Positions 2,659 through 63,320 of a stretch of DNA of 64,000 nt are shown here, in pieces. This stretch comes from Polaromonas sp. GTDB lineage: Bacteria; Pseudomonadota; Gammaproteobacteria; Burkholderiales; Burkholderiaceae_C. The translations under genes and the position numbers were made by a program. How positions within the stretch are numbered: position 1 is the stretch's first letter; each line of letters begins with the position of its first letter. The stretch is from assembly GCA_013298945.1 (NCBI GenBank), contig JAAFJR010000008.1, positions 17,293 through 81,292 of the forward strand, in the 5' to 3' direction. The notes beneath the pieces are model-generated. The model ran no database searches, was not told the DNA's origin, and worked only from the letters and a program-made list of their open reading frames with translations.

Positions 2659-2706
2659 GCTATATTTTTAATAGCTGTTTAGGCAGCAAATACGCCGGCT
2701 ACAGCC
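2659..2706 (+). repeat. 48-bp dispersed repeat, copy A (intergenic)
   Basis: gctatatttttaatagctgtttaggcagcaaatacgccggctacagcc. Matches 10 other copies in the window. Carries the TAG variant. Confidence 0.9.
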
Positions 2707-2727
2707 AAAAAACACTTCTGTAGAAGG

Positions 2728-3645
2728 CTATTTTCCAGTTTTAGAACTGCTGGATACCAAAAACACCCCCGGCAGAATCAGCAAACCGCCTATCAGGTGA
2801 TGCCAGCCGGGGGCTTCGCCTAGAACTGCCCAAGTTAAAAAAGCTGCATAGAGTGGCCCCAGATACAAAGCGACAGCGGTTCGGCTTGCGCCTAATATTT
2901 TTTGCGCCCAGCCGTAAATCCAATACGCACCCAAACCCGGCACCAAACCAGCCAAGACAATAAGCCAAAGCGCTTCTACGCCCCAAACCGTCAGGTTCGG
3001 CTGAAACAGCTCCCACACTGAAAAGGGGAGCAAGCTGGCAACGCCACCTAGGCAAATTGCGGCTAAGCGCGCAGTGGCACTCAAAGGACTTGGCCATTTT
3101 TTTTGCAAAAGTGCATAGCCCGCCCACGATACGGTGGCGGCGACTATCCATAAATCACCCACCACAAATTGCACGTTTGAGAGTGCCGCCCACTGCCCTT
3201 TCACTACAACATGCACCACGCCCAGCAAAGCCAAGCAAACGCCTGCAATTTGACGTTTGTTGATGGTTTCTCCCAGCATCCAAACCGCACCTAAGCTAAT
3301 CAACACAGGGGATGCGGCGTAAATCAGCGCAATATTCATCGCCTGTGTGGAACGCGCACCTTGGTACACCCAAGCGCCGCACACCATCATGCCCAAAGCG
3401 CCCAAGATCACGTATTGCCACCACACTTTGGCAATACTGGCACGCTGCGCCCACAACTCAGTCCGTGCTAAAACCACCAATACCAAGGCGGCCAAACCCC
3501 AGCGCCCCAACGCCAGTAAATGCGGGCCAATCACGCCGGGCGCTTTGCGGGCGACGATGTAGTTCACCGACCACAGCGCAGGGACGATCCACAGCAAAAT
3601 CAGTGCTTGTCGGGTTTGTTGTGCTGAATTTAAAGCGTCATTCAT
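2728..3645 (-). CDS. EamA/DMT-family transporter
   Basis: About 10 predicted TM helices in a duplicated EamA-like architecture. Start overlaps the dusA stop (ATGAATGA). Confidence 0.8.
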   Translation of the reverse strand: MNDALNSAQQTRQALILLWIVPALWSVNYIVARKAPGVIGPHLLALGRWGLAALVLVVLARTELWAQRASIAKVWWQYVILGALGMMVCGAWVYQGARSTQAMNIALIYAASPVLISLGAVWMLGETINKRQIAGVCLALLGVVHVVVKGQWAALSNVQFVVGDLWIVAATVSWAGYALLQKKWPSPLSATARLAAICLGGVASLLPFSVWELFQPNLTVWGVEALWLIVLAGLVPGLGAYWIYGWAQKILGASRTAVALYLGPLYAAFLTWAVLGEAPGWHHLIGGLLILPGVFLVSSSSKTGK

Positions 3646-4639
3646 GGGCTAATCTCATCACTTCTGCGGGTGCATGGTCGCGCAGCTTGTGGTCACTCCA
3701 CACCTGCCGCCAGCGCCGCGAACCGGCCAAACCGTGGCGCAAACCCAGCATGTGTCGGGCAATGGCCATCCAGTTCGTGCCATGCACGGCTTGTTCGCGC
3801 TCCATATACGTCACCATTTGCGCTTCAATAGATTCGCGGCTGGACACGGATGGTGCAGCACCAAAAAACGCTTCATCCCACGAAGCCAGTAACCACGGAT
3901 TATGGTAAGCCTCGCGTCCCACCATCACTCCATCTAAGTCTGTTAATTGCTCTGCAATTTGCACATTCGTGGTAAAGCCACCGTTGATGGCGATGTTCAG
4001 ATGCGGAAAATCTGCTTTGAGCTGATGCACGATTTCATAGCGCAGCGGTGGAATATCTCGGTTTTCTTTGGGCGACAGGCCTTTTAGCCACGCATTGCGA
4101 GCATGGACGATGAAGGTTTGACAGCCCGCATCTGCCACTTTGCTCACAAAATCGCGCACAAAACCATAGCTTTCAGGTGTATCTTCGGTTTTGTTGATGC
4201 CGATGCGGTGTTTCACGGTGATGGGCATTTTGGCAGAATCATGTACCGCATCCAGCATGGCTTTGACGCAATCGGCCACCAAATCTGGCTCGGCCATCAA
4301 ACACGCCCCAAAAGCGCCCTTTTGCACCCGCTCCGACGGGCAGCCGCAGTTAATATTGACCTCGTCATAGCCCCACTCTTCCGCCACACGGGCGGCAATC
4401 GCCAACTTATCCGGCTCGCTACCACCCAGCTGCAAGGCGAGCGGATGCTCCTCGGTGTTGTAGCGCAAATGACGCGGCACATCGCCATGCACGACAGCAC
4501 CGGCGTTGATCATCTCGGTGTAAAGCAGTGTGTTTTTGGATAACAAGCGGTGGAAATACCGGCAATGGCGGTCTGTCCAATCCATCATGGGGGCTACCGA
4601 CAATTTTCGGTGAGTTGCAAAGCTATAAATGTCAGTCAT
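3638..4639 (-). CDS. dusA: tRNA-dihydrouridine(20/20a) synthase
   Basis: N-terminus LSVAPMMDWTDRHCRYFHRLLSKNTLLYTEMI and INCGCP motif typical of DusA. Confidence 0.9.
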   Translation of the reverse strand: MTDIYSFATHRKLSVAPMMDWTDRHCRYFHRLLSKNTLLYTEMINAGAVVHGDVPRHLRYNTEEHPLALQLGGSEPDKLAIAARVAEEWGYDEVNINCGCPSERVQKGAFGACLMAEPDLVADCVKAMLDAVHDSAKMPITVKHRIGINKTEDTPESYGFVRDFVSKVADAGCQTFIVHARNAWLKGLSPKENRDIPPLRYEIVHQLKADFPHLNIAINGGFTTNVQIAEQLTDLDGVMVGREAYHNPWLLASWDEAFFGAAPSVSSRESIEAQMVTYMEREQAVHGTNWMAIARHMLGLRHGLAGSRRWRQVWSDHKLRDHAPAEVMRLAHE

Positions 4640-5071
4640 TCCTATCGATTATAGAAAGTTTGCAAAATCTTCTGCTATGCATGCAGCAATGAAGTCAAAA
4701 TTAAGTGTCATTCAATGAAAAAACATAGTCCATTCATTTTTTTATTGTCCTAAATTGAATCTAAGTTAAGAATTAAGTATATTTTTGATACACCAGATAT
4801 AAAGCACATCCACTTGAGTTTTAGGGTAGCTGACAAATACCAACTATTCTTAAGCATGTTTTTTATCCGAAGAAATACGCCTAATAAAGTACACACGAAA
4901 ATTCCAGCCTCATCATCATCAAAATAAAATTTGATAAATAAACCTAAATAATCACGAATTTACTCAGAGAAAAGCAAAATTCTTAACAAGAATGCAGCAA
5001 ACTGCACCATAATTTAGAAGCTTTACTAAGTCAACCGAGTACGAATTTTTCAAAGCCTAAAGCAACGCAAA

Positions 5072-6115
5072 ATGCATTTAACAAAAATCTTACTGGTCGA
5101 TGATCAACCTATCAGTCTGCTTTATTTAAAACAAACACTAAGTCGATTATCTGACACCTATATAACTACATGTAGTGATGCAATAAAGGCTTTAGACCTT
5201 TGCAAACATGAACCATGGGATCTGATCGTTGCTGATTATCAAATGCCTGGAATGAATGGCCTAGAGTTCATACGACAATTTAGGCAACTGAACGAGGGCG
5301 AAGATACGCCCATTTTGATGGTAACGGCCTCCACCGATCCTAGTGTTAAGTATCAATTGCTTGACCTAGGCGTTGTCGATTTCTTGCAAAAACCAGTGGA
5401 TATTTCAGAATTAACTGCACGATCAAGAAATCTAATCTCTCTTCGTAAAGCCAGACTTATATTAAAAAACCATAACCAAGAACTTAAAAAAGGTGTGCAA
5501 GAAATGACCGTCGTACTCGCAGAGCGAGAACGAGAAAGTTTGTTGGTTTTGGCTCGTGCGGCTGAATCCCGTGATCCTCAAACGGGTTCTCATCTGACAC
5601 GCATGGCTTCATACTCAAAAATAATTGCTTTGGAACTTGGTCTTTCTGAAGATGAAGCCGAAGAAATATACTTGGCTGCGCCTATGCACGATGTAGGAAA
5701 GATAGGCATCCCGGATCGAATCTTGCTCAAGGAGGGAAAGTTAACACCAGAAGAGTGGCTTGAAATGAAACGCCACACTAAATACGGTCATGATATTTTG
5801 GGGAATTCATTAACACCCATCTTGCAGTTAGGTGGAGTGATTGCTTTAAATCATCATGAAGCTTGGGACGGGAGTGGTTATCCAGATGGAAAAAAAGGCG
5901 AGGAAATTCCATTGTGTGCAAGAATAGTTGCAGTAGCTGATGTATTTGATGCACTGACGTCAGTGCGACCTTATAAAAAAGCTTGGTCTCTAGAAGAAGC
6001 TTTGGATGAATTAAACAAATTATCAGATGTCCGACTTGACGCTAATTGTGTCAAAGCATTTATGAAGTCCATCGATTCCGTTAAAGAAATAATGCAAATT
6101 CATGCTGACGTATAA
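5072..6115 (+). CDS. response regulator with HD-GYP c-di-GMP phosphodiesterase domain (RpfG-type)
   Basis: REC domain (LLVDDQP...VADYQMPGMNG...LQKP) followed by HD (MHDVGKIGIPD) and HHEAWDGSGYP motifs. Confidence 0.85.
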   Translation: MHLTKILLVDDQPISLLYLKQTLSRLSDTYITTCSDAIKALDLCKHEPWDLIVADYQMPGMNGLEFIRQFRQLNEGEDTPILMVTASTDPSVKYQLLDLGVVDFLQKPVDISELTARSRNLISLRKARLILKNHNQELKKGVQEMTVVLAERERESLLVLARAAESRDPQTGSHLTRMASYSKIIALELGLSEDEAEEIYLAAPMHDVGKIGIPDRILLKEGKLTPEEWLEMKRHTKYGHDILGNSLTPILQLGGVIALNHHEAWDGSGYPDGKKGEEIPLCARIVAVADVFDALTSVRPYKKAWSLEEALDELNKLSDVRLDANCVKAFMKSIDSVKEIMQIHADV

Positions 6116-6965
6116 AAATATTCTTGAAAGTCTGGATGTAGGTATTGCGATTCTTCGTGATGGAAAATATCTTTCAAATTTAAACATTGCTTTTAAAGAA
6201 TTTTTATCAATAGAAGAAGATATAGAAGATATAGAGTCACTGCTATCGCGAATTGACTCTGACTCCAACTCTATCGCAAAGTTTAATATTTTTTTGAATT
6301 TTCCTGAGAATTTGCAATCATCTTTTATCTTGAATCTAAATTCAGGCATTGTCCTAGGGTGTAAATTAAAACGATTATTGGCAAATGAGGAAGAGACCAT
6401 CGATCTTCTGACAATTCAAGATTTAACCAGTCAAGAATTACGGATTAGGCAACTCACTATTGAATCGCAACAAGATGAGTTAACTGGTGTAGCGAATCGC
6501 CGAAAATTCGAGTACGAATTTTCAAAATTGTATGAGTTCTTACAGCGAACAAAAATAACTGGTGCTTTGTTGATATTAGATTTGGATAATTTCAAAACTA
6601 TAAACGATCGTTTTGGACATAGTACTGGTGATCGGATTCTTCAACAAGTTTGTTTGGCGCTATCTCCGGTAATAAGAAATTACGAGATGCTTGCTCGCGT
6701 TGGTGGAGATGAGTTTGCAATTTTGGTGTCCCATTCTGGCGAGCAGGCAATTTTACGTTTAACTAAAGAAGTCCCATTGGCATTAAAATCAATCAAAATA
6801 AATGCCAATGATGAAACAAGTACAACTGAAGTTTTGAAAGTATCGATAGGTGCTTGTACATTTCCGTTATCTGATTTATCCTATAAAGAGGTATATGAAA
6901 TAGCAGACAAAAATATGTATGAGTACAAAATGAGAGCAAAAAATCTAAAACAAGAAACTCAATAA
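6102..6965 (+). CDS. GGDEF-domain diguanylate cyclase with an unrecognised N-terminal domain
   Basis: DELTGVANRR...LDLDNFKTINDRFGHSTGD...RVGGDEFAILV. Overlaps the upstream HD-GYP gene by 14 nt. Confidence 0.85.
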   Translation: MLTYKNILESLDVGIAILRDGKYLSNLNIAFKEFLSIEEDIEDIESLLSRIDSDSNSIAKFNIFLNFPENLQSSFILNLNSGIVLGCKLKRLLANEEETIDLLTIQDLTSQELRIRQLTIESQQDELTGVANRRKFEYEFSKLYEFLQRTKITGALLILDLDNFKTINDRFGHSTGDRILQQVCLALSPVIRNYEMLARVGGDEFAILVSHSGEQAILRLTKEVPLALKSIKINANDETSTTEVLKVSIGACTFPLSDLSYKEVYEIADKNMYEYKMRAKNLKQETQ

Positions 6966-7060
6966 TTACTAGCAAATTTATATAACTATAATTATAAGGA
7001 AAATTTATTAAAAATATTGTTTTTGTAAATTTTAAGAATTGCCTGAATCAAATTTTTCCA

Positions 7061-7351
7061 TGGTTATAGTCGATGATATTTTTGATGATAAAAAACAACC
7101 TTTACTTGTCGATGACAATGCCGTTAACCGGCTTCTCGCAGTTTTGTTTTAATAGATAATGTGGATTAATGCGGATACAGCAAATGATGGTTTTGAGTCA
7201 TTCGAGCTTATTAAGGTAATTTTGTGATTGCCTTCTCTGCCAGTACTTTTGAATCTGATAAAAAATCACTAAAAAAGCTGGTGTGAATGCTTTTATATCA
7301 AAGCCGTTCAAATTTGATGATTTAAAGGAAAGTTTATCAATTCCGCGCTAA
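7061..7351 (+). pseudogene. decayed receiver (REC) domain remnant
   Basis: Three frames together read LLVDDNAVNRLLAVLF** / NADTANDGFESFELIK / VIAFSASTFESDKKSLKK / AGVNAFISKPFKFDDLKESL. These are receiver-domain landmarks interrupted by stops and frameshifts, and the phospho-acceptor segment is missing. Confidence 0.7.
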
Positions 7352-7381
7352 TTGTAAAAACACATAAAGTTGTCACAACTT

Positions 7382-8683
7382 TTATGCCTTGCTAGGATCC
7401 TCAAATTTTTCAAATTTATTTCCCGAAAGGCTTGCTGCAATATATCTGCATACAACACCCATTGCTAACGCCAGTACTGCGTGCTCTAAAATATTGCTTA
7501 CTCCACCATACCAATTGATGATTACTGCGAGCAAAAGCATGTCTTGCAGGTCCTCCCTTTTTGAGGTGCCTGAGAACTTGAGCAAGGTGGCAATCCCAAG
7601 AACAAATATAGGTATAGCGAACACACCAACTAGCACATAGGAATAGACAAATACGTTGTCACCTGCGTTAGCCATAGCTGGCTCAAAAATACTGACTGGA
7701 ACCCCTATACCACCTAAGCCACGACCTAGCAGGGGTAATCCATGTTCATGCGCTAATTGTAAAGCTCTTGGCCACATATCATTCATTCGGTCGATAAATG
7801 AACCATACAAAGGGTTATCAATATCTGTACGAGCCGCTTCTTGCCAGTCCATAGTCCAGCCCATCATTGGTGGTACAAATAGCCAAAAAATACCTATGAC
7901 GAAAGTAAATCTTAATAATTTAGAGTTGTCGCGAATGAGGGCCTCGCTTGCAATCACTGTCATCATCAGAGCCAATAGAATGCCTTTAGATGTAGATAGC
8001 GATACTGCAACAGTACAAAAAATCCACAACAAAAATCGATAAAACCCTTTTGGTATTCGCAAACTTAGTAGACCAGCAGCAACTACGATTTGCCCTGCTA
8101 CGTCAAATGATGACCTGGCTAAGCCAGAGAGTCGCTGACTTCCTCCGCTTGTCTCCCACTCCCTAGCACCTTCTAGCTCAACGCCACCAACTTGATAAGA
8201 CACGCCTACCCATGGATAGGGTATGAAGCTATGCATAATAACGCCGCCCACTGCGATAAAAAACATAGCATAAAGCACCAACATTCGGTTTGACGGCTTC
8301 ACCATAAATGCTGGCGCACAAGTCAATCCAAACATAAAAGGTGCAAGTACCCACAATCCAAACACGGGTTGAACGACACTATTTGTTGTGACAATGCCGA
8401 CCAATAAGGAGAGTAAAACTAATGCAATGAATAAAAAAACACCCGAAGTTAGTTTTTGATAATAAAGCTTGTAAAACAGTATCGAAAGTGTGCATCCCAC
8501 CATCAATAGATTTGGAACATATGTCAAAGGAGCGGCTCCAACGATATCTAGTATCCAACGAACCACACCGCCATTAAGTTGCATCACCAAGAAAATAATA
8601 AGTGCAGCTCGGCACATGAACTGCCATTTTTTGATAAAACCTGGATCCAAATCACTTAGAACCCATGCGTCTAGCGAATTCAT
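7382..8683 (-). CDS. polytopic membrane protein, O-antigen polymerase/ligase (Wzy-like) family
   Basis: At least 10 TM segments and a large periplasmic loop. Located between a GT4 gene and the c-di-GMP genes in the EPS cluster. Confidence 0.6.
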   Translation of the reverse strand: MNSLDAWVLSDLDPGFIKKWQFMCRAALIIFLVMQLNGGVVRWILDIVGAAPLTYVPNLLMVGCTLSILFYKLYYQKLTSGVFLFIALVLLSLLVGIVTTNSVVQPVFGLWVLAPFMFGLTCAPAFMVKPSNRMLVLYAMFFIAVGGVIMHSFIPYPWVGVSYQVGGVELEGAREWETSGGSQRLSGLARSSFDVAGQIVVAAGLLSLRIPKGFYRFLLWIFCTVAVSLSTSKGILLALMMTVIASEALIRDNSKLLRFTFVIGIFWLFVPPMMGWTMDWQEAARTDIDNPLYGSFIDRMNDMWPRALQLAHEHGLPLLGRGLGGIGVPVSIFEPAMANAGDNVFVYSYVLVGVFAIPIFVLGIATLLKFSGTSKREDLQDMLLLAVIINWYGGVSNILEHAVLALAMGVVCRYIAASLSGNKFEKFEDPSKA

Positions 8684-8695
8684 GTGTATGCTTTT

Positions 8696-11154: not shown

Positions 11155-11217
11155 AATAGAATATAGTTTATTTGTGAGATTAGCATGCTATTTTTACAAT
11201 TAATATAATTTAGGTTG

Positions 11218-14792: not shown

Positions 14793-14841
14793 GAATATAG
14801 CTTTTAACATATTAATTTTAAAGACTTTAATCATAATTTGT

Positions 14842-16251
14842 TTAATAAGCATTTTTACCAGTAATGACTAATTTAATTGTGCGCAATATGACATATATAT
14901 CTAGCATTGGCGTCCAATTTCTCAAATACTCTAAATCGTACTCCACTCGTTTCTCCATCTTATCAATGGTATCAGTTTCACCTCGAAACCCATGTATTTG
15001 AGCCCATCCAGTTAAACCCGGTTTAACTTTATGACGAAGCATATAGCCCTTAACAAGTCCTCTATATTGTCTGTTGTGTCCTGCAGCGTGTGGCCTGGGG
15101 CCCACGATGCTCATATCGCCCTTAAAAATATTTATCAATTGCGGTAATTCATCGATGGACGTTCGACGAATGAAAGCACCCACCTTTGTTACTCGCATGT
15201 CATTTTGAGTTGTTTGCACTACAGTTTCTCCATCACTTGAAGCATTGCTGGTTGCTTGCGTCATCGATCTGAATTTATAAATTTGAAAAGGTTGTGCGCC
15301 ATTACCCCATCTATTTTGCATAAAAAATACTGGACCTTTTGAATCAATTTTTATCCAAATTGCCACCAATATTAACAATGGCAAAAGCACTATTAAACCA
15401 ATAGAAGAACCTAAAATATCAAAAATACGTTTAATGACAGAATCAAACCCTTTGCCGGGTGAGTCAATAATCGTAAATACCGACATACTGCCAATGGGAG
15501 TCATAGCCTCCCTAATTGGGCGAAACAATAAAAAATCATGTAAGTAATGCACTGAACAAGTACTGTCTAGCAACTGCTCCAACACAAAACCGAATCTATA
15601 GCTTGCTTCAGTAGGTAAAGAAACTAATACATGGTCTACATTTTGATTCGTAATATAGTCTGCAATTGCATCTATGCGACATAGGATTTTAAAAGGAGTG
15701 TATTCGGGAATCCTATCATCTGTTCGATCTTCGAAAAAACCAAGAAAATCAACTGCTAAAAACCTTTGAGTTGAAAGGCTTTGAGCGAAAGCTACACTAG
15801 AACTGGTAACTGCAGCAATAGCGAGATTGATTGGCTTTCTTTTGAATATTTTCAATACTGAAATTTCAATAAAAATAATAGTTAATATTGAACTAAAAAT
15901 CCATAAAAATGAAGAAAAATAAATACACTGCTTCCATTTTTCACTCCAAGATCCATCAATTGCAAAAACAATATTTGCTAATAAATATATCAACAAAGAT
16001 TTACTAAGTAAATCACTAAAAACCGCAAATCGAAAACTTTTTATCTTAGTTAGCTTGTGAATATCGAAACGAACCCAAACCATCGACAGCGCTAAAACAA
16101 TTAATAATGGCCAAAGACCTTTGTCACTGCCATCAAACCAGCCATAAAACCATGCTAAACAAATAGAACAAAACGCAGGCACGACTAACTGGATAACGTA
16201 CCTAAAAGGATTACGTATCGCTAAAAAATCTGAACCAGAACCATATTGCAC
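14842..16251 (-). CDS. undecaprenyl-phosphate hexose-1-phosphate transferase (WbaP/WcaJ-type initiating enzyme)
   Basis: C-terminal bacterial sugar transferase domain: [20 protein letters not shown]...YKFRSM...[21 protein letters not shown]. Confidence 0.85.
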
Positions 16252-19721: not shown

Positions 19722-19753
19722 GCTGTTAAATTGAATGTGGGTTTATATAGCTG

Positions 19754-20229: not shown

Positions 20230-20964
20230 TCATCTAAGCTGTACTGAACCATTAACCGTGACAGAGACCGTACTTTTCCCTGCTTCAACAGGCACTGAAA
20301 CGTCTGAAGTCGCCATTTTCATTGATACTTCTGCCATCCGCGGCCGGGGCATATAAGCTTGGTCACCAGCACTAACCGTTACTTCGCGTACAGTATAGCT
20401 ACCAAGACCAAAGCTTTTCGCGATATCGGCAGCTTTGGCGCGGAAGCGATCAATGGCCGTATGCTGTGCCTCGGTTTCCACTTTGGCACGCTGCTCGCGG
20501 CTGAGGCTGAACGCGACATTGGCAATCGTTAGGGTCTGAATTTTGCCGGCTGCAGCGCTGATTTTGGCGAAATCGCGCCCCTCTAACACCAGCTCTGTCG
20601 TGCCCTGCCAGCCGTTGATTTTGCCGTCTTTGCCGTAGCGCGGGTAAAGGCTGAAGTTGCCTGTGCGTACATCGAGTTGACCTGAAGCCGCCGTCTTTTT
20701 AGCCTCTATTAACGCGGCATCCAAAGCAGTTTTAAGCTGTGTTTGTACGAGGTTGGCATCAGCCGCTTCACGTGTGGTGCTCATGTTGATGGTCAAAATA
20801 TCTTGCTGCACCTCTACAGCGGCATTGGCGCTGAGTTGAACGATATTTTGCGGCTCTTGATAGCGTTGAGCATCTTGATTTATCTGAGCAAATAAGGCTG
20901 TATTCGGCGTAATTATTGCCTGAATAGCTATAATTTTAATAGCAAATAAAAAATGTTCGTTCAT
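20230..20964 (-). CDS. SIMPL/DUF541-family periplasmic protein
   Basis: LSANAAVEVQQDILTINMSTTREAADANLVQTQLKTALDAAL and C-terminal VSVTVNGSVQL, typical of DUF541. Confidence 0.75.
   Translation of the reverse strand: MNEHFLFAIKIIAIQAIITPNTALFAQINQDAQRYQEPQNIVQLSANAAVEVQQDILTINMSTTREAADANLVQTQLKTALDAALIEAKKTAASGQLDVRTGNFSLYPRYGKDGKINGWQGTTELVLEGRDFAKISAAAGKIQTLTIANVAFSLSREQRAKVETEAQHTAIDRFRAKAADIAKSFGLGSYTVREVTVSAGDQAYMPRPRMAEVSMKMATSDVSVPVEAGKSTVSVTVNGSVQLR
20896..20943 (-). repeat. 48-bp dispersed repeat, copy B (in frame in the SIMPL gene N-terminus)
   Basis: ggctgtattcggcgtaattattgcctgaatagctataattttaatagc. Encodes AIKIIAIQAIITPNTA. CAG variant. Confidence 0.9.
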
Positions 20965-25935: not shown

Positions 25936-25990
25936 TCGCCCATTGTAACCGCTCAAATACGTAAAAACCCGTATTTAGACCCTAAAATAT

Positions 25991-26038
25991 GACTCTAGCC
26001 AGCGTATTTGCTGCCTGAACAGCTATTATATTTATAGC
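25991..26038 (-). repeat. 48-bp dispersed repeat, copy C (intergenic)
   Basis: gactctagccagcgtatttgctgcctgaacagctattatatttatagc. The only intergenic copy with CAG. Confidence 0.9.
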
Positions 26039-26054
26039 AAATTCAACGCCGCAT

Positions 26055-29234: not shown

Positions 29235-29250
29235 TTTTTAGCATGAAATT

Positions 29251-29298
29251 GACTATAGCCGCTGTATTTATTGCCTAAGCAGCTATGAAATTAATAGC
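29251..29298 (-). repeat. 48-bp dispersed repeat, copy D (intergenic)
   Basis: gactatagccgctgtatttattgcctaagcagctatgaaattaatagc. TAG variant (TAA on this strand). Confidence 0.9.
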
Positions 29299-29325
29299 TA
29301 TTTAAATGACAAATTTAGACTAAAT

Positions 29326-29564: not shown

Positions 29565-32030
29565 TTATTTCCGAAGGGCTTGCAGTTTTGAGAAGGCGGA
29601 GGCCATAGCTGATGGCGCTGCGGCGGATTGATTTCCCTGATTTCCATTTCCGCGTTTCTGCTGTCCCCTGCCCGCTCCTTCAAAGCGATTCTGCCCACCA
29701 TTGTGACGTTGTTCGCCTCGTTGCGCCGGTTTTTCACCCAGTTTCATGGTCAAACCAATGCGTTTACGCTCAACATCTACCTCGACGACTTGTACTTTAA
29801 CGATATCACCGGTTTTGACGACTTCTCTGGCGTCGGTGGTGAATTTGTGGCTCAGTTGGCTGACGTGGACCAAGCCGTCCTGGTGCACACCCAGGTCGAT
29901 AAACGCGCCAAAAGCTGCGACGTTGCTGACAGTGCCCTCCAAAATCATGCCTTCACGCAGGTCTTTGATGTCTTCCACACCGTCGTTGAAGCGCGCTACT
30001 TTGAAGTCTGGGCGCGGGTCGCGACCCGGTTTTTCTAGCTCACCCAGAATGTCTTTGACGGTGATGACGCCAAACTTGTCATTGGCAAACAACTCGGGAC
30101 GCAGGGTTTTTAGCATGTCTGCCCTGCCCATCAACTCGGCAACGGGTTTTCCGGTTGTGGTGATGATTTGCTCTACCACGGGATAGGTTTCAGGGTGAAC
30201 GCCGGTCATGTCCAGCGGGTTGTCGCCGCCGCGAATGCGCAAAAAGCCGGCACATTGCTCAAAGGCTTTGGGCCCCAGGCCGGTCACTTCACTGAGTTGA
30301 CGGCGGTTTTTGAACGCGCCATTCGCCTCGCGCCAGCGCACAACCGACTTGGCGACGCTGGCAGACAGGCCGGAGACGCGACTGAGTAAGGGGACGCTGG
30401 CGGTGTTCAAGTCGACACCGACCGAGTTGACGCAGTCTTCTACCACCGAGCCCAGGCTACGTGCCAGTTCGGACTGGTTCAAGTCATGCTGGTACTGCCC
30501 CACGCCAATGGCTTTGGGGTCGATTTTGACCAACTCGGCCAACGGGTCTTGCAAGCGCCGCGCAATGCTGGCCGCACCGCGCAGGCTGACGTCCACATCG
30601 GGCATTTCCAGGCTAGCAAACTCGCTGGCGCTGTAGACGGAAGCGCCAGCCTCTGAGACCACTACTTTTTCTATAGCTATTGAGGCAACGGATACGACGG
30701 CTACAGCCGTTTTTACACTATTTTCTCGGTTTTTAGCCATCAACTTTATCAAATCACCCGCCAGTTTGTCGGTTTCGCGGCTGGCTGTGCCGTTGCCGAT
30801 GGCGATGAGATTGACACCGTGTTTCTCGCACATTTTGCTCAAAATATGCAGCGAGCCGTCCCAGTCTTTGCGCGGCTCGTGCGGGTAGATGGTGGCGGTT
30901 TCGACCAGTTTGCCAGTCGCATCGACCACGGCCACTTTCACACCGGTGCGGATGCCAGGGTCTAAGCCCATCACCACACGTGGGCCGGCGGGTGCGGCCA
31001 GCAGCAAGTCGCGCAAGTTATCAGCAAACACCTTGATGGCGACTTTTTCAGCCTCTTCCCTGAGCTTAGCGAACAAATCGCGCTCGGTAGACAGGCTGAG
31101 CTTGACGCGCCAAGTCCAGGCAACGCATTTGCGGATCAAGTCGTCAGAGGCTCTGCCGAGATGACTCCAGCCTAAATGTAGGGCAATGCGTGCTTCGGCG
31201 AGTGAGACTGGAGCAACTTTTGTAGCAATGGCTGGCTCTGGAGGCGCGGGAAGAACCAACTTAGCATCCAAAATTTCCAACCCCCGCCCACGGAACACTG
31301 CCAAAGCGCGGTGCGACGGCACGCGGCCTATCGGTTCGTCGTAGTCAAAGTAGTCGCGAAACTTGGCGACATCGGCGTTGTTTGGGTCTTTGCCGTCCAT
31401 CAGCTTGCTTTGCAGCAAGCCTGTGTCCCACAGCCAAACGCGCAAACTTTGCACCAAGGCGGCGTCTTCGGCCCAGCGCTCTGAGAGCAAGTCGCGCACG
31501 CCGTCTAAAACGGCCGCTACGGTGGAGAAATCGGGCTGTTTGTCTTCGCCATCCACTTGAGGCTTGAGCGGAATCACAAAGGCTTCGGCCTCAAGTGCTG
31601 GTGCGAGTGTCGGGTCGGCGAAAAGCTTGTCTGCCAGCGGCTCTAGCCCCGCTTCCCGTGCCATTTGACCCTTGGTGCGGCGTTTGAGTTTGAACGGAAG
31701 ATACAGGTCTTCCAGCTCTTGCTTGGTGGCGCAGTCGGCAATTGAAAGGCACAGCGCATCAGTTAACTTGCCTTGCTCATCAATAGCTTTGAGGACAACT
31801 TCGCGCCTGTCGGCAAGTTCGCGCAGGTACGAGAGGCGAAATTCTAATTCTCGTAGCTGAATATCGTCTAGCCCGCCCGTGGCTTCCTTGCGATATCGGG
31901 CGATGAAGGGGACGGTTGCGCCGCCGTCGAGTAGTTCGACGGCAGATTTGACTTGCTCGGGTTTGACTTTGATTTCTAGAGAGATCTGCGTGATTATTTG
32001 GTGGATGATATGGGAGTTGATTTGATGCAT
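29565..32030 (-). CDS. tex: transcription accessory protein Tex (YqgF/HhH/S1 domains)
   Basis: ARYRKEATGGLDD, AIGNGTASRETD and SEAGASVYSAS motifs, a C-terminal S1 domain (GTVSNVAAFGAFIDLGVHQDGLVHVSQL) and a basic tail. Confidence 0.9.
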   Translation of the reverse strand: MHQINSHIIHQIITQISLEIKVKPEQVKSAVELLDGGATVPFIARYRKEATGGLDDIQLRELEFRLSYLRELADRREVVLKAIDEQGKLTDALCLSIADCATKQELEDLYLPFKLKRRTKGQMAREAGLEPLADKLFADPTLAPALEAEAFVIPLKPQVDGEDKQPDFSTVAAVLDGVRDLLSERWAEDAALVQSLRVWLWDTGLLQSKLMDGKDPNNADVAKFRDYFDYDEPIGRVPSHRALAVFRGRGLEILDAKLVLPAPPEPAIATKVAPVSLAEARIALHLGWSHLGRASDDLIRKCVAWTWRVKLSLSTERDLFAKLREEAEKVAIKVFADNLRDLLLAAPAGPRVVMGLDPGIRTGVKVAVVDATGKLVETATIYPHEPRKDWDGSLHILSKMCEKHGVNLIAIGNGTASRETDKLAGDLIKLMAKNRENSVKTAVAVVSVASIAIEKVVVSEAGASVYSASEFASLEMPDVDVSLRGAASIARRLQDPLAELVKIDPKAIGVGQYQHDLNQSELARSLGSVVEDCVNSVGVDLNTASVPLLSRVSGLSASVAKSVVRWREANGAFKNRRQLSEVTGLGPKAFEQCAGFLRIRGGDNPLDMTGVHPETYPVVEQIITTTGKPVAELMGRADMLKTLRPELFANDKFGVITVKDILGELEKPGRDPRPDFKVARFNDGVEDIKDLREGMILEGTVSNVAAFGAFIDLGVHQDGLVHVSQLSHKFTTDAREVVKTGDIVKVQVVEVDVERKRIGLTMKLGEKPAQRGEQRHNGGQNRFEGAGRGQQKRGNGNQGNQSAAAPSAMASAFSKLQALRK
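30661..30708 (+). repeat. 48-bp dispersed repeat, copy E (in frame in tex)
   Basis: actactttttctatagctattgaggcaacggatacgacggctacagcc. On the coding strand it encodes AVAVVSVASIAIEKVV. GAG variant. Confidence 0.85.
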
Positions 32031-40696: not shown

Positions 40697-42097
40697 TTAA
40701 AAACCATAAAATTTAAATTCTGTGCCTGAATTCATGGCTTTGCCCTGCGCAATCTCGGGTACTTTGCCATCTATCAGCTCCGCTAGCGCCTTGCCCGACC
40801 CTGCACCGTGTGTCCAGCCTAGCGTGCCGTGGCCTGCGTTGACCCACAGCTTCCCAACTTTGGTCTTACCGATGACGGGAATGTTGGTCGGCGTGGCTGG
40901 GCGCAGGCCTGCCCAGTAGTTAGGCGATCCGCCCTCTTCTAAGCTACGTGTATCGCACACGCCAGGCAGCACGGTTTCTACCCGTTTGGCCAGCATGCGG
41001 CAGCGTATTTGCGACAATTCAGAATCAATCGAGTTGTCATAAGCGCTAATTTCAATGGTTCCTGCCACGCGCAGCTGGTCGCCCAAACGCGTCATCGCAC
41101 ACTTGGCTTGGTCGTCAATGACTGAGACGTTGGGCGCTAGCTCAGGTTTCAAGATTTTGAAGGTGGCGCTATAGCCTTTGCCTGGGTAAATCGGCACATC
41201 GACGCCAACGGTGCGTAAAAGTGGTGCGGTGTAAGAGCCGCAAGCGACGACAAAAGCGTCTGCTATCAGGGTTTTTACCTCAAATTCGTCATTTTTATGT
41301 CCATTTATATCCTTATTTTTACCTCTAGCCAGCGTATTCACTGCCTGAATAGCTATAGATTTAATAGTATTTTTTGACATATTCAATGCCAATACATCAT
41401 GCCCGTACAGAATCTCAGCACCTCTAGCTGCACAAACTTGCGCTAGTTTTTGCGTGAATACGCGGGCGTCGCCGCTCTCGTCGCTATCCGTATAAGTGCC
41501 ACCTACGATGTGGGAAGCAAAGGATTTCAATGCGGGCTCGATTTTTAAAATAGCATCCCGCCCAAGCACTTGCCGATTCACGCCATATTTTTGCATCAAC
41601 AAAGCAGCTTCACCAGCTGCATCGAATGCGTGTTGGTCTGTGAAATAGTGAGCGATGCCGCGTTCAAGGCGGTTGTAATCAATACCAGTCGCATCGACAA
41701 TGTCTTTCAAAGCCAGATGGCTGTATGCGCCAAGCGCGACGATTTGCTGCACATTGCACTCAAACGCGGCGTCGTTACACTGCCCCAAAAACTGCATGCC
41801 CCAACGCCATTGCTGCCAACCACCACCGAATTTGGCAGTGGGGCCAAATGTGGGCCATTGTGGGCGAAACAGCAAAGGTGCTTCTTTGCTGAACATCCAT
41901 TTCAGGGCTTTAAGCGGCGCGTCTTTGTTGGCCCATGGCTCGCAGTAGCTCACCGATATTTGCCCTGCATTGGCAAAGCTGGTTTCCAGCGCAGCGTTTG
42001 GCTGGCGGTCAATCACAATCACTTCATGACCCAATTCCAACAAATGCCACGCAGTGCTGATGCCTATGATACCTGCGCCTAAAACAATGATTTTCAT
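40697..42097 (-). CDS. dadA: D-amino-acid dehydrogenase small subunit
   Basis: MKIIVLGAGIIGISTAWHLLELGHEVIVIDR FAD fold and a DadA-like C-terminus. Start chosen at MKII rather than the 22-codon-longer ORF. Confidence 0.85.
   Translation of the reverse strand: MKIIVLGAGIIGISTAWHLLELGHEVIVIDRQPNAALETSFANAGQISVSYCEPWANKDAPLKALKWMFSKEAPLLFRPQWPTFGPTAKFGGGWQQWRWGMQFLGQCNDAAFECNVQQIVALGAYSHLALKDIVDATGIDYNRLERGIAHYFTDQHAFDAAGEAALLMQKYGVNRQVLGRDAILKIEPALKSFASHIVGGTYTDSDESGDARVFTQKLAQVCAARGAEILYGHDVLALNMSKNTIKSIAIQAVNTLARGKNKDINGHKNDEFEVKTLIADAFVVACGSYTAPLLRTVGVDVPIYPGKGYSATFKILKPELAPNVSVIDDQAKCAMTRLGDQLRVAGTIEISAYDNSIDSELSQIRCRMLAKRVETVLPGVCDTRSLEEGGSPNYWAGLRPATPTNIPVIGKTKVGKLWVNAGHGTLGWTHGAGSGKALAELIDGKVPEIAQGKAMNSGTEFKFYGF
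41321..41368 (-). repeat. 48-bp dispersed repeat, copy F (in frame in dadA)
   Basis: acctctagccagcgtattcactgcctgaatagctatagatttaatagt. Encodes TIKSIAIQAVNTLARG. CAG variant. Confidence 0.9.
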
Positions 42098-44597: not shown

Positions 44598-45413
44598 ATG
44601 CAGCTTAAATTTGAGTTTAAATTTAAATCAATATTTGCTATTATTTTTATAGCTATTGAGGCAATAATTACGTCGGCTATAGCCCAATTTAACCCTCAAA
44701 ATGCTTGTAAAGCAGCATCTGGCGTTAATATCACACCTGTCGTAGAACTTTACACCTCAGAAGGCTGCAGCTCGTGCCCACCTGCTGAAAAATGGCTCAA
44801 CACTTTGAAGGGTAAAACCCCATCAAATTCAAACGCGAACCCTGCGGTGATTCAAGCTTTCCACGTCAATTATTGGGACTATATCGGCTGGCCTGACCGC
44901 TTTGCGACAGCTGCACACACAAATCGACAGCGGCAGATCTCTGCTTGGAACAAGCAAAACGGCATTTACACCCCGCAAATGGTGCTCAACGGTGGCGATT
45001 GGCGCGGCTGGGGCAGCGTTGGGCCGTTCAATGCAGCTGTGCCGTCTGCTAAAACAACCTCTACAAGCTCAATTATCCTAACTCAGACGGGCGCAGACCA
45101 GTTTGAAGCTGTGGTTAGTCCAGTTTCAGTCACAAACTCAGCTTCAGGCACGTGGTCAGCTTATTGGACTATCACTGAGCACGGCCATGTTACCAAGGTT
45201 AAAGCCGGTGAAAACAGTGGGGAGACGCTGCTGCACGATTTCGTTGTGCGCCAATACACGCCCGTAGGCGACTATAGTGCGACGACACCCCAAAAGCTGA
45301 GCTTACGCGGCGTCGCAGCCACCCCAGGGCACGAGCGACAGGTCAATTTAGTGGTTTTTGACCCCAAAACTGGCAAAACCATACAAGCCGTGTCTGCCAA
45401 CTGCTCGTCTTAA
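44598..45413 (+). CDS. DUF1223-family (thioredoxin-like) secreted protein
   Basis: AAGGAG Shine-Dalgarno 5 nt upstream. VELYTSEGCSSCPPAEKWL motif. Confidence 0.75.
   Translation: MQLKFEFKFKSIFAIIFIAIEAIITSAIAQFNPQNACKAASGVNITPVVELYTSEGCSSCPPAEKWLNTLKGKTPSNSNANPAVIQAFHVNYWDYIGWPDRFATAAHTNRQRQISAWNKQNGIYTPQMVLNGGDWRGWGSVGPFNAAVPSAKTTSTSSIILTQTGADQFEAVVSPVSVTNSASGTWSAYWTITEHGHVTKVKAGENSGETLLHDFVVRQYTPVGDYSATTPQKLSLRGVAATPGHERQVNLVVFDPKTGKTIQAVSANCSS
44637..44684 (+). repeat. 48-bp dispersed repeat, copy G (in frame in the DUF1223 gene N-terminus)
   Basis: gctattatttttatagctattgaggcaataattacgtcggctatagcc. Encodes AIIFIAIEAIITSAIA. GAG variant. Confidence 0.9.
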
Positions 45414-50919: not shown

Positions 50920-50936
50920 GATGATCTTCTTTTTTT

Positions 50937-50984
50937 ACTATAGTTTTAATAGCTACTTAGGCAATAAATACGCCGGCTACAGCC
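50937..50984 (+). repeat. 48-bp dispersed repeat, copy H (intergenic, nirB-nirD spacer)
   Basis: actatagttttaatagctacttaggcaataaatacgccggctacagcc. TAG variant. Followed by an AT-rich extension with ttgcttatattt x2. Confidence 0.9.
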
Positions 50985-51038
50985 ATATTTACACCTATTT
51001 TTGCTTATATTTGCTTATATTTACCTATATTGATCGAT

Positions 51039-55376: not shown

Positions 55377-55386
55377 AGGAGAATTC

Positions 55387-55434
55387 GGTTGTAGCCGGCG
55401 TATTTATTGCCTAAGAAGCTATTAAATACATAGC
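55387..55434 (-). repeat. 48-bp dispersed repeat, copy I (intergenic)
   Basis: ggttgtagccggcgtatttattgcctaagaagctattaaatacatagc. TAG variant. Confidence 0.9.
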
Positions 55435-55457
55435 ATTCCTTACCGCCACTTATGCTA

Positions 55458-60520: not shown

Positions 60521-60593
60521 ATTTTATAAAAATAAAAATCTTTCACTTGCCGAACAACACAAAACCCGTTCATCCTGAGCTTGTCGAAGGGTT

Positions 60594-61259
60594 CTAAACC
60601 AACAAATCAGCCACATCCAACATCCGCTGCGCCACCTCAACCACTTTCAAACTCTTGTCCATCGCAGTTTTGCGCAGTTTGTCGTAAGCAGCTTGCTCGT
60701 TCAAGCCTTGGCGCTGCATCAGCATGCCTTTGGCACGGTCAATCACTTTGCGGTCTTGCAACTCTACTTTGGTCTCTGCCAGCTCTTGGCGCAGAGCCTG
60801 CTCATGCTGAAAACGCGCCATCGCCACGTCTAAAATCGGGCGAATCCGCTCGCTGGACAGCCCCGCCACAATGTAAGCCGATACGCCAGCAGCTACCGCG
60901 TCTTTGACGTGGGAAGTGTCATTGTCATTGGTGAACATCACAATCGGGCGGCGTGCATCTCGGGTCGCCACCACCACATGCTCCAGCGCATCACGCGCTT
61001 GGCTTTCCGCATCCACAATGATCATGTCGGGCTGAAGCTGCGTCAAACGCTCGTTCAAAAACGTGTCTGCAGGCAGCACAGCGACCAAATTGAAGCCATT
61101 CTCAAGCAAACCAATGCGCAAACTGCGTGAGCGCTCCGCTTGGTTGATGGTATAGGCATCTGCGGGGTCAGCAATAGCTAACTCAGGGGCAATCACCACA
61201 ATGCGCAGCGCTTGCAAAGGCAGATTTGCTGGTTTAGCGAGAGATTTGCCTGTATTCAT
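60594..61259 (-). CDS. nasT: ANTAR-domain antiterminator response regulator (NasT/AmiR family)
   Basis: REC-like N-terminus and C-terminal ANTAR (LQDRKVIDRAKGMLMQRQGLNEQAAYDKLRKTAMDKSLKVVEVAQ). Confidence 0.85.
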   Translation of the reverse strand: MNTGKSLAKPANLPLQALRIVVIAPELAIADPADAYTINQAERSRSLRIGLLENGFNLVAVLPADTFLNERLTQLQPDMIIVDAESQARDALEHVVVATRDARRPIVMFTNDNDTSHVKDAVAAGVSAYIVAGLSSERIRPILDVAMARFQHEQALRQELAETKVELQDRKVIDRAKGMLMQRQGLNEQAAYDKLRKTAMDKSLKVVEVAQRMLDVADLLV

Positions 61260-61307
61260 ACTCAGAAAAATGCAACCATCGTGCCAATATGCTGCAGCGC
61301 AGCAAGT

Positions 61308-61751
61308 TTAATGCGCCGTCTGCGCCTTGCTCACCACGTCATACCTGCTTAGAGCATAGCCTCGGTCCTTGTAATGCTTCCAGCGGGTGCGAGCGGCTTG
61401 CAGGTCGGCTTCGTTTTGGCCGACGATTTCTAGCAAACGCTCAAATCGCTCAAAACCGGCGGGTAAAGCTGCACCAAGATTGAGCAAAACCTGCGATTCT
61501 GCGGCTGAATTGGGCAGATCCAAGCTCAAAACGATAGGCGAATGGGCGATGACCTCGGCTGCTGCATCTACCAAGCAATGCGGCAAAAACTCGGTTGGCG
61601 ACATTGCCCACAGTTTGGCGCTGAGCAATTTCAGTGCATCAATCTGCCCAAGAACAAGCACTTGGGCAGATTTTTTTTGTGTCGCACGCAAAAGGCGGCA
61701 GGCATAGTCCAGCTTGTCTGGCGCGTTGACGTGGAAGGCGATTTCGGTCAT
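61308..61751 (-). CDS. holC: DNA polymerase III chi subunit
   Basis: MTEIAFHVNAPDKLDYACRLL N-terminus, size, and the conserved pepA-holC neighbourhood. Confidence 0.8.
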   Translation of the reverse strand: MTEIAFHVNAPDKLDYACRLLRATQKKSAQVLVLGQIDALKLLSAKLWAMSPTEFLPHCLVDAAAEVIAHSPIVLSLDLPNSAAESQVLLNLGAALPAGFERFERLLEIVGQNEADLQAARTRWKHYKDRGYALSRYDVVSKAQTAH

Positions 61752-61757
61752 GCAAGG

Positions 61758-63320
61758 TTATGCTTTGACTGTGGTTTTTGCATTTTTAGCAGGTTTTTTT
61801 ACTATTTTTTTAATAGCTGTTGAGGCAGGTAATACGCTGGCTACAGCATTATTTGACTCTAAATCAAGCAAATAATTCAACAACAAAAGCACAGGACGAC
61901 CGGTGGAGCCTTTAACCGCCCCACTCTTCCATGCTGTGCCCGCAATATCCAAGTGCGCCCAAGGGTAGCTGGCGGTAAATTTTTGCAAAAACTTGGCAGC
62001 GGTGACTGAGCCTGCGGCACGACCTGCCACATTGGCCATGTCGGCAAAGTTGGACTTCAAGCCTTCGCCGTATTCGTCGTCCAAAGGCATGCGCCAGCAA
62101 GGGTCGCCGCTGGATTCGCCGGCTTTGAGCAAGGCATTAGCCAAATCATCGTTGGCGCTGAACAAACCGCTGCGCACCGCGCCTAGGGCAATGACGCAAG
62201 CGCCGGTCAAGGTGGCGATGTCGATGACGGCTGAAGGTTTGAAGCGTTCAGCGTAGGTCAGCGCGTCGCACAGCACCAAGCGGCCTTCGGCGTCGGTGTT
62301 GAGGTTTTCAATGGTTTGGCCGCTCATGCTGGTCACCACGTCGCCCGGTTTCACGGCTTTGCCGCTGGGCATGTTTTCGCAGGCGGGAATCAAGCCAACC
62401 ACGTTGATTTTGGGCTGAATCCCCGCCAAAGCGCGGAACGTGCCCAACACGCTAGCTGCGCCACACATGTCAAACTTCATTTCGTCCATCTCCGGCGCGG
62501 GTTTCAGCGAGATGCCACCTGTGTCAAAAGTGATGCCTTTGCCCACCAATACCGTGGGTGCAACGGCTTTAGCTGCGCCGTTGTACTTCAAAACAATAAA
62601 TCGCAGCGGCTGGTCTGAGCCCTGCGCGACGGACATGAACGAACCCATACCCAACTTGGCCACTTCCTTCAAGCCGAGTACATCAACGCTGATGTTTTTG
62701 TATTTTGACAAGCTCTTGGCCGCTTTACCCAGCAAGTCTGGCGTGGCGTGGTTGGCGGGGCGATTTCCCCACTCTTTTGCGAACTCAATACCACTCATAG
62801 CCGGCGTAATATATGCCTGAGCAGCTATTAAATCAGTAGCACTTAAAGCATCTTTATCAACCACTACGGTGATGTGCGTGAGCTTGCGCGGCTCGACTTT
62901 GGTTTTGGTGCTGGTGTAAACGTAACTGGCATCAGCTGCGCAGAGTACGGCGGCTTTAACAGCTTCTGAAGTGATTTTGTTAACTTCGCTCAAGCAAATG
63001 ACGAGTTTTTTAGCTGACGTAGACTTGATACTTGAAACTGCTGCTGTAACGGCGGTTTTGATGTTTTTGACCGAACCGTCACCAGCACCGACCAACACGG
63101 TTCGCGTAGCGGCTGCATGGCTGGAGCGGTAGACTTGCAGCAATTTACCAGTTTTAGCTTCAAAATCGCCCTCTTTCATAGCCTGGGAAATCAAATCCGT
63201 TAAATTAGCTGTGGTTTTAGACTTGGTTTGAGAAAACGACTCAGGAACAAGCACAATCAAGGCGTCGCAGGTGGTTTTGCTGGTTTGCGTTATATCTTGG
63301 GCAATGAGTTTCAGTTCCAT
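61758..63320 (-). CDS. pepA: leucyl aminopeptidase (M17)
   Basis: VGKGITFDTGGISLKP and NTDAEGRLVLCDAL motifs. Divergent from lptF, as in many proteobacteria. Confidence 0.9.
   Translation of the reverse strand: MELKLIAQDITQTSKTTCDALIVLVPESFSQTKSKTTANLTDLISQAMKEGDFEAKTGKLLQVYRSSHAAATRTVLVGAGDGSVKNIKTAVTAAVSSIKSTSAKKLVICLSEVNKITSEAVKAAVLCAADASYVYTSTKTKVEPRKLTHITVVVDKDALSATDLIAAQAYITPAMSGIEFAKEWGNRPANHATPDLLGKAAKSLSKYKNISVDVLGLKEVAKLGMGSFMSVAQGSDQPLRFIVLKYNGAAKAVAPTVLVGKGITFDTGGISLKPAPEMDEMKFDMCGAASVLGTFRALAGIQPKINVVGLIPACENMPSGKAVKPGDVVTSMSGQTIENLNTDAEGRLVLCDALTYAERFKPSAVIDIATLTGACVIALGAVRSGLFSANDDLANALLKAGESSGDPCWRMPLDDEYGEGLKSNFADMANVAGRAAGSVTAAKFLQKFTASYPWAHLDIAGTAWKSGAVKGSTGRPVLLLLNYLLDLESNNAVASVLPASTAIKKIVKKPAKNAKTTVKA
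61801..61849 (+). repeat. dispersed repeat, copy J (49 bp; forms part of the pepA 3' end)
   Basis: actattttttttaatagctgttgaggcaggtaatacgctggctacagca. On the coding strand it encodes AVASVLPASTAIKKIV. GAG variant. Confidence 0.85.
62793..62840 (-). repeat. 48-bp dispersed repeat, copy K (in frame inside pepA)
   Basis: actcatagccggcgtaatatatgcctgagcagctattaaatcagtagc. Encodes ATDLIAAQAYITPAMS. CAG variant. Confidence 0.85.

Follow-up and report, generated by a model that had tools for sequence, protein, structure and literature searches.

Rickettsia palindromic elements, as summarised in the review PMC10969869 (citing Ogata et al. 2000), are dispersed repeats that often lie in frame within unrelated housekeeping genes. 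In-frame genic copies of repetitive extragenic palindromic (REP)-type repeats have also been documented outside Rickettsia (PMC3733652; reviewed in PMC10969869), and the phenomenon is thus not unprecedented. A MITE (miniature inverted-repeat transposable element) has been reported for Polaromonas sp. JS666 (Mattes 2008, as cited in PMC10969869). In the current study, we have analysed a short dispersed repeat in a 64-kb stretch of a Polaromonas sp. contig (hereafter the window; coordinates are window positions unless a related locus is named), which occurs both between and within genes. What is new here is the strong selection on the copies at the DNA level, including those inside coding sequence. 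We favour, with a probability of roughly 0.55, the reading that this is a clade-specific dispersed repeat of mobile origin whose copies entered as whole units and have since been maintained for their DNA sequence by selection, most likely as sites that a protein recognises.

The initial annotation had described 11 copies (A to K, Table 1), and three approaches recovered the same set at the same places. A search pattern made from the invariant columns of these copies (CTA-N8-ATAGCT-NNT-N-AGGCA-N5-TAC-N3-G-NN-TA) matched all 11 positions with 0 mismatches, and allowing up to two mismatches yielded no extra site in the window, the shuffle expectation being 0. A repeat finder independently recovered the 11 copies as two strand families (D1 and D2), which align well. 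An nhmmer profile hidden Markov model, built from 125 distinct copies of the window and related genomes, gave exactly 11 matches in the window, all at E ≤ 6e-13. The next match (E = 0.03) was the palindromic left arm echoed on the other strand, and this profile scan of the window found no decayed relics of the repeat. Both orientations were seen, as had been described, with five copies on the forward strand (listed at 2659, 30661, 44637, 50937 and 61801) and six on the reverse strand. The division into five intergenic copies (A, C, D, H and I) and six copies within open reading frames (ORFs; B, E, F, G, J and K) also stood.

The unit proved to be longer than the 48 bp first proposed. Among the 125 distinct copies, conserved columns reach about 6 nt to the left of the original start and about 5 nt past the original end, so that conservation extends to about 60 bp. 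The family consensus is AATTTGCTAT-(A/T)7-ATAGCT-NNT-N-AGGCA-ATAAATACGCCGGCTA-N-AGGCATATTT, and the unit of about 60 bp can be written out as AATTTG CTAT (A/T)7 ATAGCT nnT n AGGCA atAAATACGCCGGCTA n AGgCatATTT. An additional A/T tract lies about 8 nt downstream of this unit, and, in our reading of the consensus and of the mutual information between columns, the A/T tracts of the element are spaced at roughly 11-bp intervals. As for the architecture first described, the core pattern is shared by all 11 copies, whereas the right-hand palindrome GGCTnnAGCC is confined to the variants of this genome, the family consensus at that place being GGCTAGAGGCATATTT.

Comparison of orthologous copies carries the case for selection. 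For copies C, F, J and K, orthologous copies exist in metagenome-assembled genomes (MAGs) that are 81-86% identical to the window DNA; copy K is identical at 47 of 48 nt in the related locus L051, where a counterpart of copy J is also present. Over all related loci compared, 24 of 25 orthologous sites were occupied in both species. Partner copies were chosen by alignment of the flanks and not by the motif, while the focal copies were ascertained by the motif. Between orthologous copies, the 21 core positions diverged by 2.0%, compared with 22% at the 21 non-core positions interleaved with them, 17.6% in the flanks and 42% at four-fold synonymous sites of adjacent genes, and random pairs of non-orthologous copies diverged by 40% at the non-core positions. 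Core divergence is about a tenth of non-core divergence, where neutrality combined with the ascertainment of focal copies predicts about half. The copies thus appear to be under strong position-specific purifying selection across species, the core of each copy being protected either by the host or by some continuing drive. Gene conversion as the source of core conservation can be rejected by inference, since it cannot explain a pattern in which variable positions interleave with fixed ones.

The conserved feature of the element is its primary sequence together with A/T (AA/TT) tracts, and not a structure, because the stems do not covary and the top pairs are only adjacent dinucleotides. In 157 copies, no covariation was found in the stems, pairing being equal to the independent-column expectation (pairs 4/10, 5/9, 35/45, 33/47 and the other stem pairs), and all top mutual-information pairs were adjacent AA/TT dinucleotides. 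Two small hairpins can be drawn for the consensus (folding z = -2.1 and -2.8), but the window copies, with z from -1.7 to +0.85, are no better at folding than shuffled sequence, and the picture of a palindromic element that had been proposed was not sustained. Adenine-specific variation of the type generated by diversity-generating retroelements was rejected too, the variable positions not being adenines in the consensus.

A single variable base, the one before AGGCA, determines whether the element can be read through. When it is T, every one of the six frames of the consensus contains a stop codon; the main sense frame is open with C, G or A and the main antisense frame with G or A. Among 196 copies, the base was T in 85 of the 100 copies outside any long open frame, and none of the 48 copies that use the two main frames has T there (Fisher p = 6e-26). 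Copies in the main sense frame carry C (20), A (6) or G (4), those in the main antisense frame G (15), A (2) or C (1), and the genic copies of the window, all of them non-T, obey this rule exactly. The stop-opening base is direct evidence, at the level of sequence, that genic copies are probably translated or at least must stay open. The peptide of the sense frame is A-I-x-x-I-A-x-Q-A-I-N-T-P-A, which is hydrophobic and helix-like, and that of the antisense frame is A-G-V-S-I-A-S-x-A-I. The use of one frame per orientation, as first described, holds in the window (B, F, G and K in one sense frame, E and J in one antisense frame), but relatives use two minor frames too. Of the window copies 6/11 are genic, and for the whole set of 174-196 copies the share is about 25-30% (about 44-59 in long ORFs); the genic copies occupy signal-peptide cores, inter-domain linkers, loops and tails.

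The possibility that genic copies lie outside the real coding regions does not hold for tex, copy K of pepA and the DadA-like gene, in which the copies are internal to conserved domains or linkers, nor for the DUF1223 gene, in which a strong ribosome-binding site (AAGGAG) stands 6 nt 5' of the ATG and copy G lies downstream of that start. In tex, the Pfam Tex_YqgF match covers 144 aa against a 126-position profile, and copy E, in a loop of the YqgF-like domain, falls on a 17-aa gap in the alignment with P. aeruginosa Tex 3BZC. The peptides predicted to be encoded by the element include IAAQAYITPAM in PepA and AVVSVASIAIEK in Tex. Copy F of the DadA-like gene is kept in 72 of 73 distinct readable homolog segments (from the 120 best homologs, down to 71% identity), the retained peptide being IKSIA[IV][QKE]A[IV]NTPA. 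Copy G forms the hydrophobic core of the DUF1223 signal peptide, and in a YcnI-like protein of L027 the element likewise forms the signal-peptide core. The weakest of the six genic cases is copy B, which encodes the sole hydrophobic N-terminal stretch available in the SIMPL ORF, an ORF with no clear ribosome-binding site visible. As a separate observation, the IspH ORF of a relative (L039, 3138-4124, reverse strand) has an N-terminal extension (MNNIATQAINTPATVENT...) derived from an element copy. The true start of IspH may be an internal GTG, in which case some N-terminal 'genic' copies may precede the real start codon.

How the copies came to lie within genes was approached by comparison with relatives, and here the insertion picture first proposed applies in part. 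The Tex loop has 42-43 aa in the shortest element-free relatives and 53-66 aa in most carriers, which is a gain in length. In tex of L102, a full 60-nt copy is followed by the native IEKVVV, and therefore at least the Tex copy arrived as a block; the window copy E is 18 nt shorter, a loss that would fit a subsequent deletion between the codons of the similar motifs IENVV and IEKVV. Some relatives have another in-frame repeat in this loop, or both repeats, and the loop is too diverged in the empty Tex alleles (L101 and L103) to yield base-level ends of the element. On the other hand, several genic copies are near length-neutral and not 16-codon insertions. Copy K of pepA brings a net +4 aa relative to relatives without the element and substitutes for a native helix of similar sequence (AARSELAQGRALVAG vs SATDLIAAQAYITPAMSG), the pepA tail with copy J exists in relatives also, and the DUF1223 signal peptide with copy G is of ordinary length. 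In the E2 acetyltransferase linker (L001/L018), a perfect copy (AIQTIAAQATNTSAKGG) in one species stands against AIKTMAAEAVAKKSGSG of equal length in the relative. The latter may instead be a decayed copy, and, with E. coli E2p having 12 aa fewer at the linker, the change may have gone either way. Candidate empty sites with a length difference of 34-50 nt were rejected, since both species carry the copy and indels lie nearby.

Taken together, we infer that whole units enter by insertion followed by trimming, or by the replacement of short patches where the sequence is partly similar, which is a known process in other bacteria. Gradual build-up by point mutation is unlikely, because the score distribution is all-or-none. 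The Tex loop (about 30640-30760 in the window, residues about 430-460) is in its own right an insertion hot spot, with 42 to 98 residues among 120 close homologs, and contains in these the 60-bp element, a second repeat family (described below), both, or N/K-rich low-complexity runs.

Outside genes, the copies are not placed at random. Intergenic copies were found in 47 convergent, 45 tandem and 9 divergent regions, the background regions numbering 69, 182 and 81, respectively (p = 3e-10), so that gene 3' ends are preferred and divergent spacers, which contain promoters, are avoided. In the window, copies A, D and I begin 11-17 nt past a stop codon. No bias for the direction of transcription was detected in tandem contexts (22 sense vs 23 antisense), nor for the replication strand (mean GC skew in element orientation 0.003, with 85/174 values positive). 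The lack of copies noticed at 4.6-20.2 kb and 32.2-38.0 kb was confirmed and has a chance probability of about 0.011. These segments are lower in G+C (36-43% at 4600-20200 and 43-47% at 32200-38000, compared with about 50-55% elsewhere), consistent with later acquisition.

The family extends well beyond the window. It was detected in at least 99 stretches of a species-representative genome collection, and the 80 stretches listed by title were all Polaromonas, Rhodoferax or Burkholderiaceae/Pseudomonadota MAGs, many of them from glacier-fed streams. The Tex protein of the window itself is on record in an 86-kb NCBI contig and in a Logan assembly. Only 4 pattern matches were found in 2.9 million viral contigs, and plasmid and phage records gave no BLAST match to the consensus (the plasmid collection may or may not include the JS666 plasmids). 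Rfam showed no relation at gathering scores or at E ≤ 1, and the literature searched contained no description of this repeat, in agreement with the earlier remark that no named equivalent is known. Judging from these matches, the element appears to be specific to low-G+C, Polaromonas/Rhodoferax-like Comamonadaceae that are uncultured and live in cold freshwater.

In the scheme that we favour, whole units would have arrived either by insertion or in exchange for short native segments, mostly before the split of the species, and would since have been retained through recognition of the double-stranded sequence by a putative protein. Candidate recognisers are a nucleoid or topoisomerase/gyrase-type factor, a transposase (as in REP-RAYT systems) or recombinase that has been domesticated, or a machine for DNA uptake, and a nucleoid or gyrase-type factor is suggested by the 3'-end and convergent placement. 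One base change from the intergenic consensus opens the frame in use, and selection would keep only those genic copies whose peptide fits as a signal-peptide core, linker, surface loop or tail.

Several points weigh against this scheme. No recognising protein, transposase or recombinase was found, and the ORFs enclosed by inverted pairs are of the housekeeping kind (by eye, SmpB, ParB, IspH, a TctC-family protein, PrpD and GlcF). Neighbouring copies are co-oriented in 52 cases vs 22 (p = 6e-4), which segmental duplications explain only partly. The counts of orthologous pairs include reciprocals, so that independent comparisons number roughly half of the stated n, and the L001/L018 site has the motif in one species only, which means that maintenance is not absolute. 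Besides, no clean empty site at high identity was found among the related loci, and the near length-neutrality of several genic copies is not predicted by simple insertion.

A broader reading, which we hold as a tentative possibility, takes the element as a genome-wide recognition signal in double-stranded DNA (for uptake or self-marking, or as a binding site of a nucleoid protein, a topoisomerase or a domesticated transposase) that selection would maintain and that may spread by replacing similar native segments as well as by insertion. If this were true, tex, pepA, the DadA-like gene and several signal peptides would be doubly constrained, by the DNA signal and by the protein, with hundreds of sites involved.

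Were the element purely selfish, a miniature mobile unit like MITEs, REPs or the Rickettsia palindromic elements, it would have inserted at random, would survive within genes only when in frame, and would otherwise be neutral and decaying. The dispersed copies in both orientations, their enrichment at gene 3' ends and the clear length gain of the Tex loop would all be expected of it, the in-frame genic copies resemble Rickettsia palindromic elements and intragenic REPs (PMC10969869, PMC3733652), and the two ends of the unit show a weak similarity (AAWTWTGCY, 6-7 of 9). The conservation data speak differently. With a core that is nearly fixed between orthologous copies (2% compared with 42% at four-fold sites) and non-core positions that have diverged, a neutral, decaying element is rejected, and the occupancy of 24/25 orthologous sites implies almost no turnover; the decay expected of a selfish element thus gives way to purifying selection across species. 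No decayed copies remain in the window, and the hairpins do not covary. Target-site duplications were sought in 155 copies at left boundaries from -14 to 0 and right boundaries from 44 to 65, with lengths of 2-9 nt, and only small excesses over permuted flanks were obtained. Neither a transposase nor a REP-associated tyrosine transposase (RAYT) was present among the ORFs between inverted pairs (about 0.69 Mb of fragments from many MAGs), and no parent insertion sequence was found among these ORFs or in plasmid or phage records. We therefore consider this explanation unlikely.

A second alternative is an uptake-signal-like sequence, maintained by biased DNA uptake and recombination (molecular drive) and tolerated in the least harmful frames. 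Such a sequence would account for the equal use of both strands with no link to GC skew or to the direction of transcription, for clade specificity, for the absence from low-G+C, probably acquired segments, and for the DNA-level conservation of orthologous copies even within genes. It would also suit the A/T tracts at roughly 11-bp intervals and the several length-neutral genic copies at places where the native peptide already resembled the translation of the motif, and a frame bias like the strong preference of the coding-region copies has been documented for uptake sequences (PMC2817400). The dimensions, however, differ: the motif spans 42-60 bp with more than 21 fixed positions, compared with cores of 9-12 bp, and occurs about once per 4-6 kb, compared with about once per kb. 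Scores are bimodal, in that all 11 window copies are perfect and sites with 1-2 mismatches are absent from the window, whereas known uptake sequences show a continuum of mismatches, and the Tex copy is a real gain in length. This makes an uptake-signal-like sequence quite unlikely.

The excess of co-oriented neighbours would be explained if the element were a recombination site for moving or shuffling small gene cassettes, like integron attC or Xer-type sites, and the inverted pair GCTAT-N7-ATAGC looks like a recombinase core whose spacer is 7 bp long. Same-orientation arrays separate small accessory genes in L066 (850-3540), L087 (2500-5330), L016 (6460-7960) and L050/L076, the genes being, by eye, BrnT/A, MazF, VapC, VOC, GFA, DUF1272, thioredoxin and tautomerase, and L050 has a tautomerase gene between two copies where L076 has a single copy. 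Deletion or duplication between direct repeats would explain such a difference of one gene plus copy equally well, as in the tandem duplication of the DUF1272 gene and its copy in L016, and the co-orientation is due in part to these arrays and their duplications. Most copies are singletons within core genes or at their ends, the loci examined contain no integrase or recombinase, and there are no RYYYAAC/GTTRRRY core sites. An integron attC site was rejected on this last ground, the consensus having CTTAGGCA in place of GTTRRRY, with neither a complementary partner nor stem covariation. A cassette recombination site is accordingly very unlikely.

A role at the RNA level, as a terminator, a stabiliser of mRNA 3' ends or a small RNA, is most improbable, for although the copies are enriched just downstream of stop codons and between convergent genes and the family consensus can form the two small hairpins mentioned above, neither stem covaries, the window copies fold like shuffles, the two orientations relative to transcription are equally common, Rfam shows no relation, and the stem has a G+C part of just 3 bp.

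Table 1. Copies of the repeat in the window, with their context, encoded peptide and variable base.
Copy	Coordinates	Strand	Context	Encoded peptide	Variable base
A	2654..2709	+	Intergenic between convergent genes; 11 nt past the stop of lipoprotein ORF 1866-2648, 22 nt before the end of ORF 2728-3645(-)		T (TAG)
B	20889..20948	-	Sense frame, codons about 8-23 of SIMPL/DUF541 ORF 20230-20964(-)	FAIKIIAIQAIITPNTA	C (CAG, Gln)
C	25984..26043	-	Intergenic between two minus-strand genes; orthologous copy in L016		C
D	29246..29303	-	Intergenic, between the DUF924 gene (28698-29234, +) and a 75-aa gene downstream of tex		T
E	30660..30715	+	Antisense frame in tex (29565-32030, -)	TAVAVVSVASIAIEK	G (TCA, Ser)
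F	41317..41371	-	Sense frame in DAO/DadA-like gene (40697-42163, -)	IKSIAIQAVNTLA	C
G	44632..44692	+	Sense frame, codons 14-29 of DUF1223 (44598-45413, +)	FAIIFIAIEAIITSAIA	G (GAG, Glu)
H	50933..50991	+	Intergenic between two minus-strand genes; nearest to the family consensus in the window		T
I	55382..55437	-	Intergenic, 11 nt past the stop of ORF 53619-55376(+)		T
J	61798..61856	+	Antisense frame, C-terminal tail of pepA (61758-63320, -)	NAVASVLPASTAIKK	G
K	62793..62845	-	Sense frame, pepA linker joining the N-terminal and catalytic domains	ATDLIAAQAYITPAMS	C

Some further features were observed around these copies. The lipoprotein gene next to copy A (signal MKISMSRLLSLVLLASTLLATGC) sits between the orthologue of ORF 1103-1888 and the copy, and in L029 an element copy directly follows the orthologue of ORF 1103-1888, with downstream synteny broken. 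Beside the SIMPL gene, ORF 21037-21474(-) contains a tandem 9-bp repeat (TGCAGTATT, several units) at 21166-21237. A 76-nt stretch at 38039-38114, in the spacer after ORF 36843-38027, is 79% identical to the interior of the DadA-like gene (41131-41206) and aligns also with the DadA-like gene of L055; it may be the remnant of a duplicated gene fragment. The sole Rfam match in the window at gathering score is a tRNA gene at 46154-46240 on the reverse strand.

The second repeat family is unrelated to the element and strongly palindromic, with the translations VRPE[LP]VEG...STSSART and PFDKLRxNG. A half copy (CCCTTCGACAAGCTCAGGATGAACGGG) lies at 60565-60595 on the reverse strand, directly after the stop of a response-regulator gene (60594-61259, ANTAR-type by eye), and full copies lie in frame in the Tex loop and GlcF of relatives. 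Sites of this family include L078 (about 5040-5150), the GlcF ORF of L057 (2801-4048) and the Tex homologs P0042, P0050, P0053, P0064 and others. A systematic adjacency of the element to this VRPELVEG-type family was rejected, with 1 of 14 matches within 100 nt.

Considering the described systems, the element shares with REPs and their RAYTs a short, high-copy and lineage-specific unit, enrichment at 3' ends, long persistence with vertical inheritance and occasional in-frame genic copies (PMC3733652, PMC2817692, PMC3116915). REPs are hairpins of 20-40 bp that are tagged with GTAG or CGTC, commonly come as inverted pairs and are associated with a RAYT gene, whereas here hairpins are not supported, copies are mostly singletons and the ORFs between inverted pairs include no RAYT. 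A GTAG-like tag, CTACAG (reverse complement CTGTAG), occurs in some window copies and is not conserved in the family, its position 42 being the least conserved of all (G 56, T 27, C 26 and A 16 in 125 copies). As regards the extragenic 3'-end placement by which REPs are recognised, convergent regions are favoured, yet about a quarter of the copies are intragenic.

The DNA uptake sequences (DUS) of Neisseria and the uptake signal sequences (USS) of Pasteurellaceae are similar in being motifs conserved at the sequence level, in both orientations, with preferred frames and orthologous conservation; they too are missing from recently acquired DNA, and phased A/T tracts flank the motif as in USS. 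The present element differs in being four to five times longer, about five times sparser and all-or-none, with at least one clear insertion. With MITEs such as Correia, ERIC and Nezha (PMC10969869), it has in common a small, non-coding, dispersed unit that can fuse in frame with host ORFs, but it is much shorter than most of them and has no convincing terminal inverted repeats, target-site duplication or parent insertion sequence.

The analogy with Rickettsia palindromic elements, which the initial annotation had drawn, stands for the in-frame genic copies and not for the palindrome, the decay or the insertion picture. Compared by description only, the two have in common the in-frame copies, the peptides placed in loops or at the surface, and copies shared by related species. 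Rickettsia palindromic elements are about 100-150 bp long, strongly palindromic and found in an obligate intracellular alpha-proteobacterium, whereas the present element is about 60 bp long, shows no stem covariation and occurs in free-living freshwater beta-proteobacteria, with stops in all six frames of its intergenic consensus and strong DNA-level selection on its core.

The annotation and phylogenetics of MAGs call for caution here, as unrelated proteins can share motifs of 16-20 residues. Maintenance at the DNA level inside genes would impose overlapping constraints of DNA signal and protein, and even hydrophobic cores of signal peptides come from the repeat. The family consists of a defined 60-mer at hundreds of sites, and related MAGs are numerous, which makes it a tractable case for the question of what keeps short bacterial repeats alive. 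Overall, the in-frame colonisation of genes by a short repeat extends from the intracellular Rickettsia to abundant, free-living bacteria of freshwater and glacier streams.

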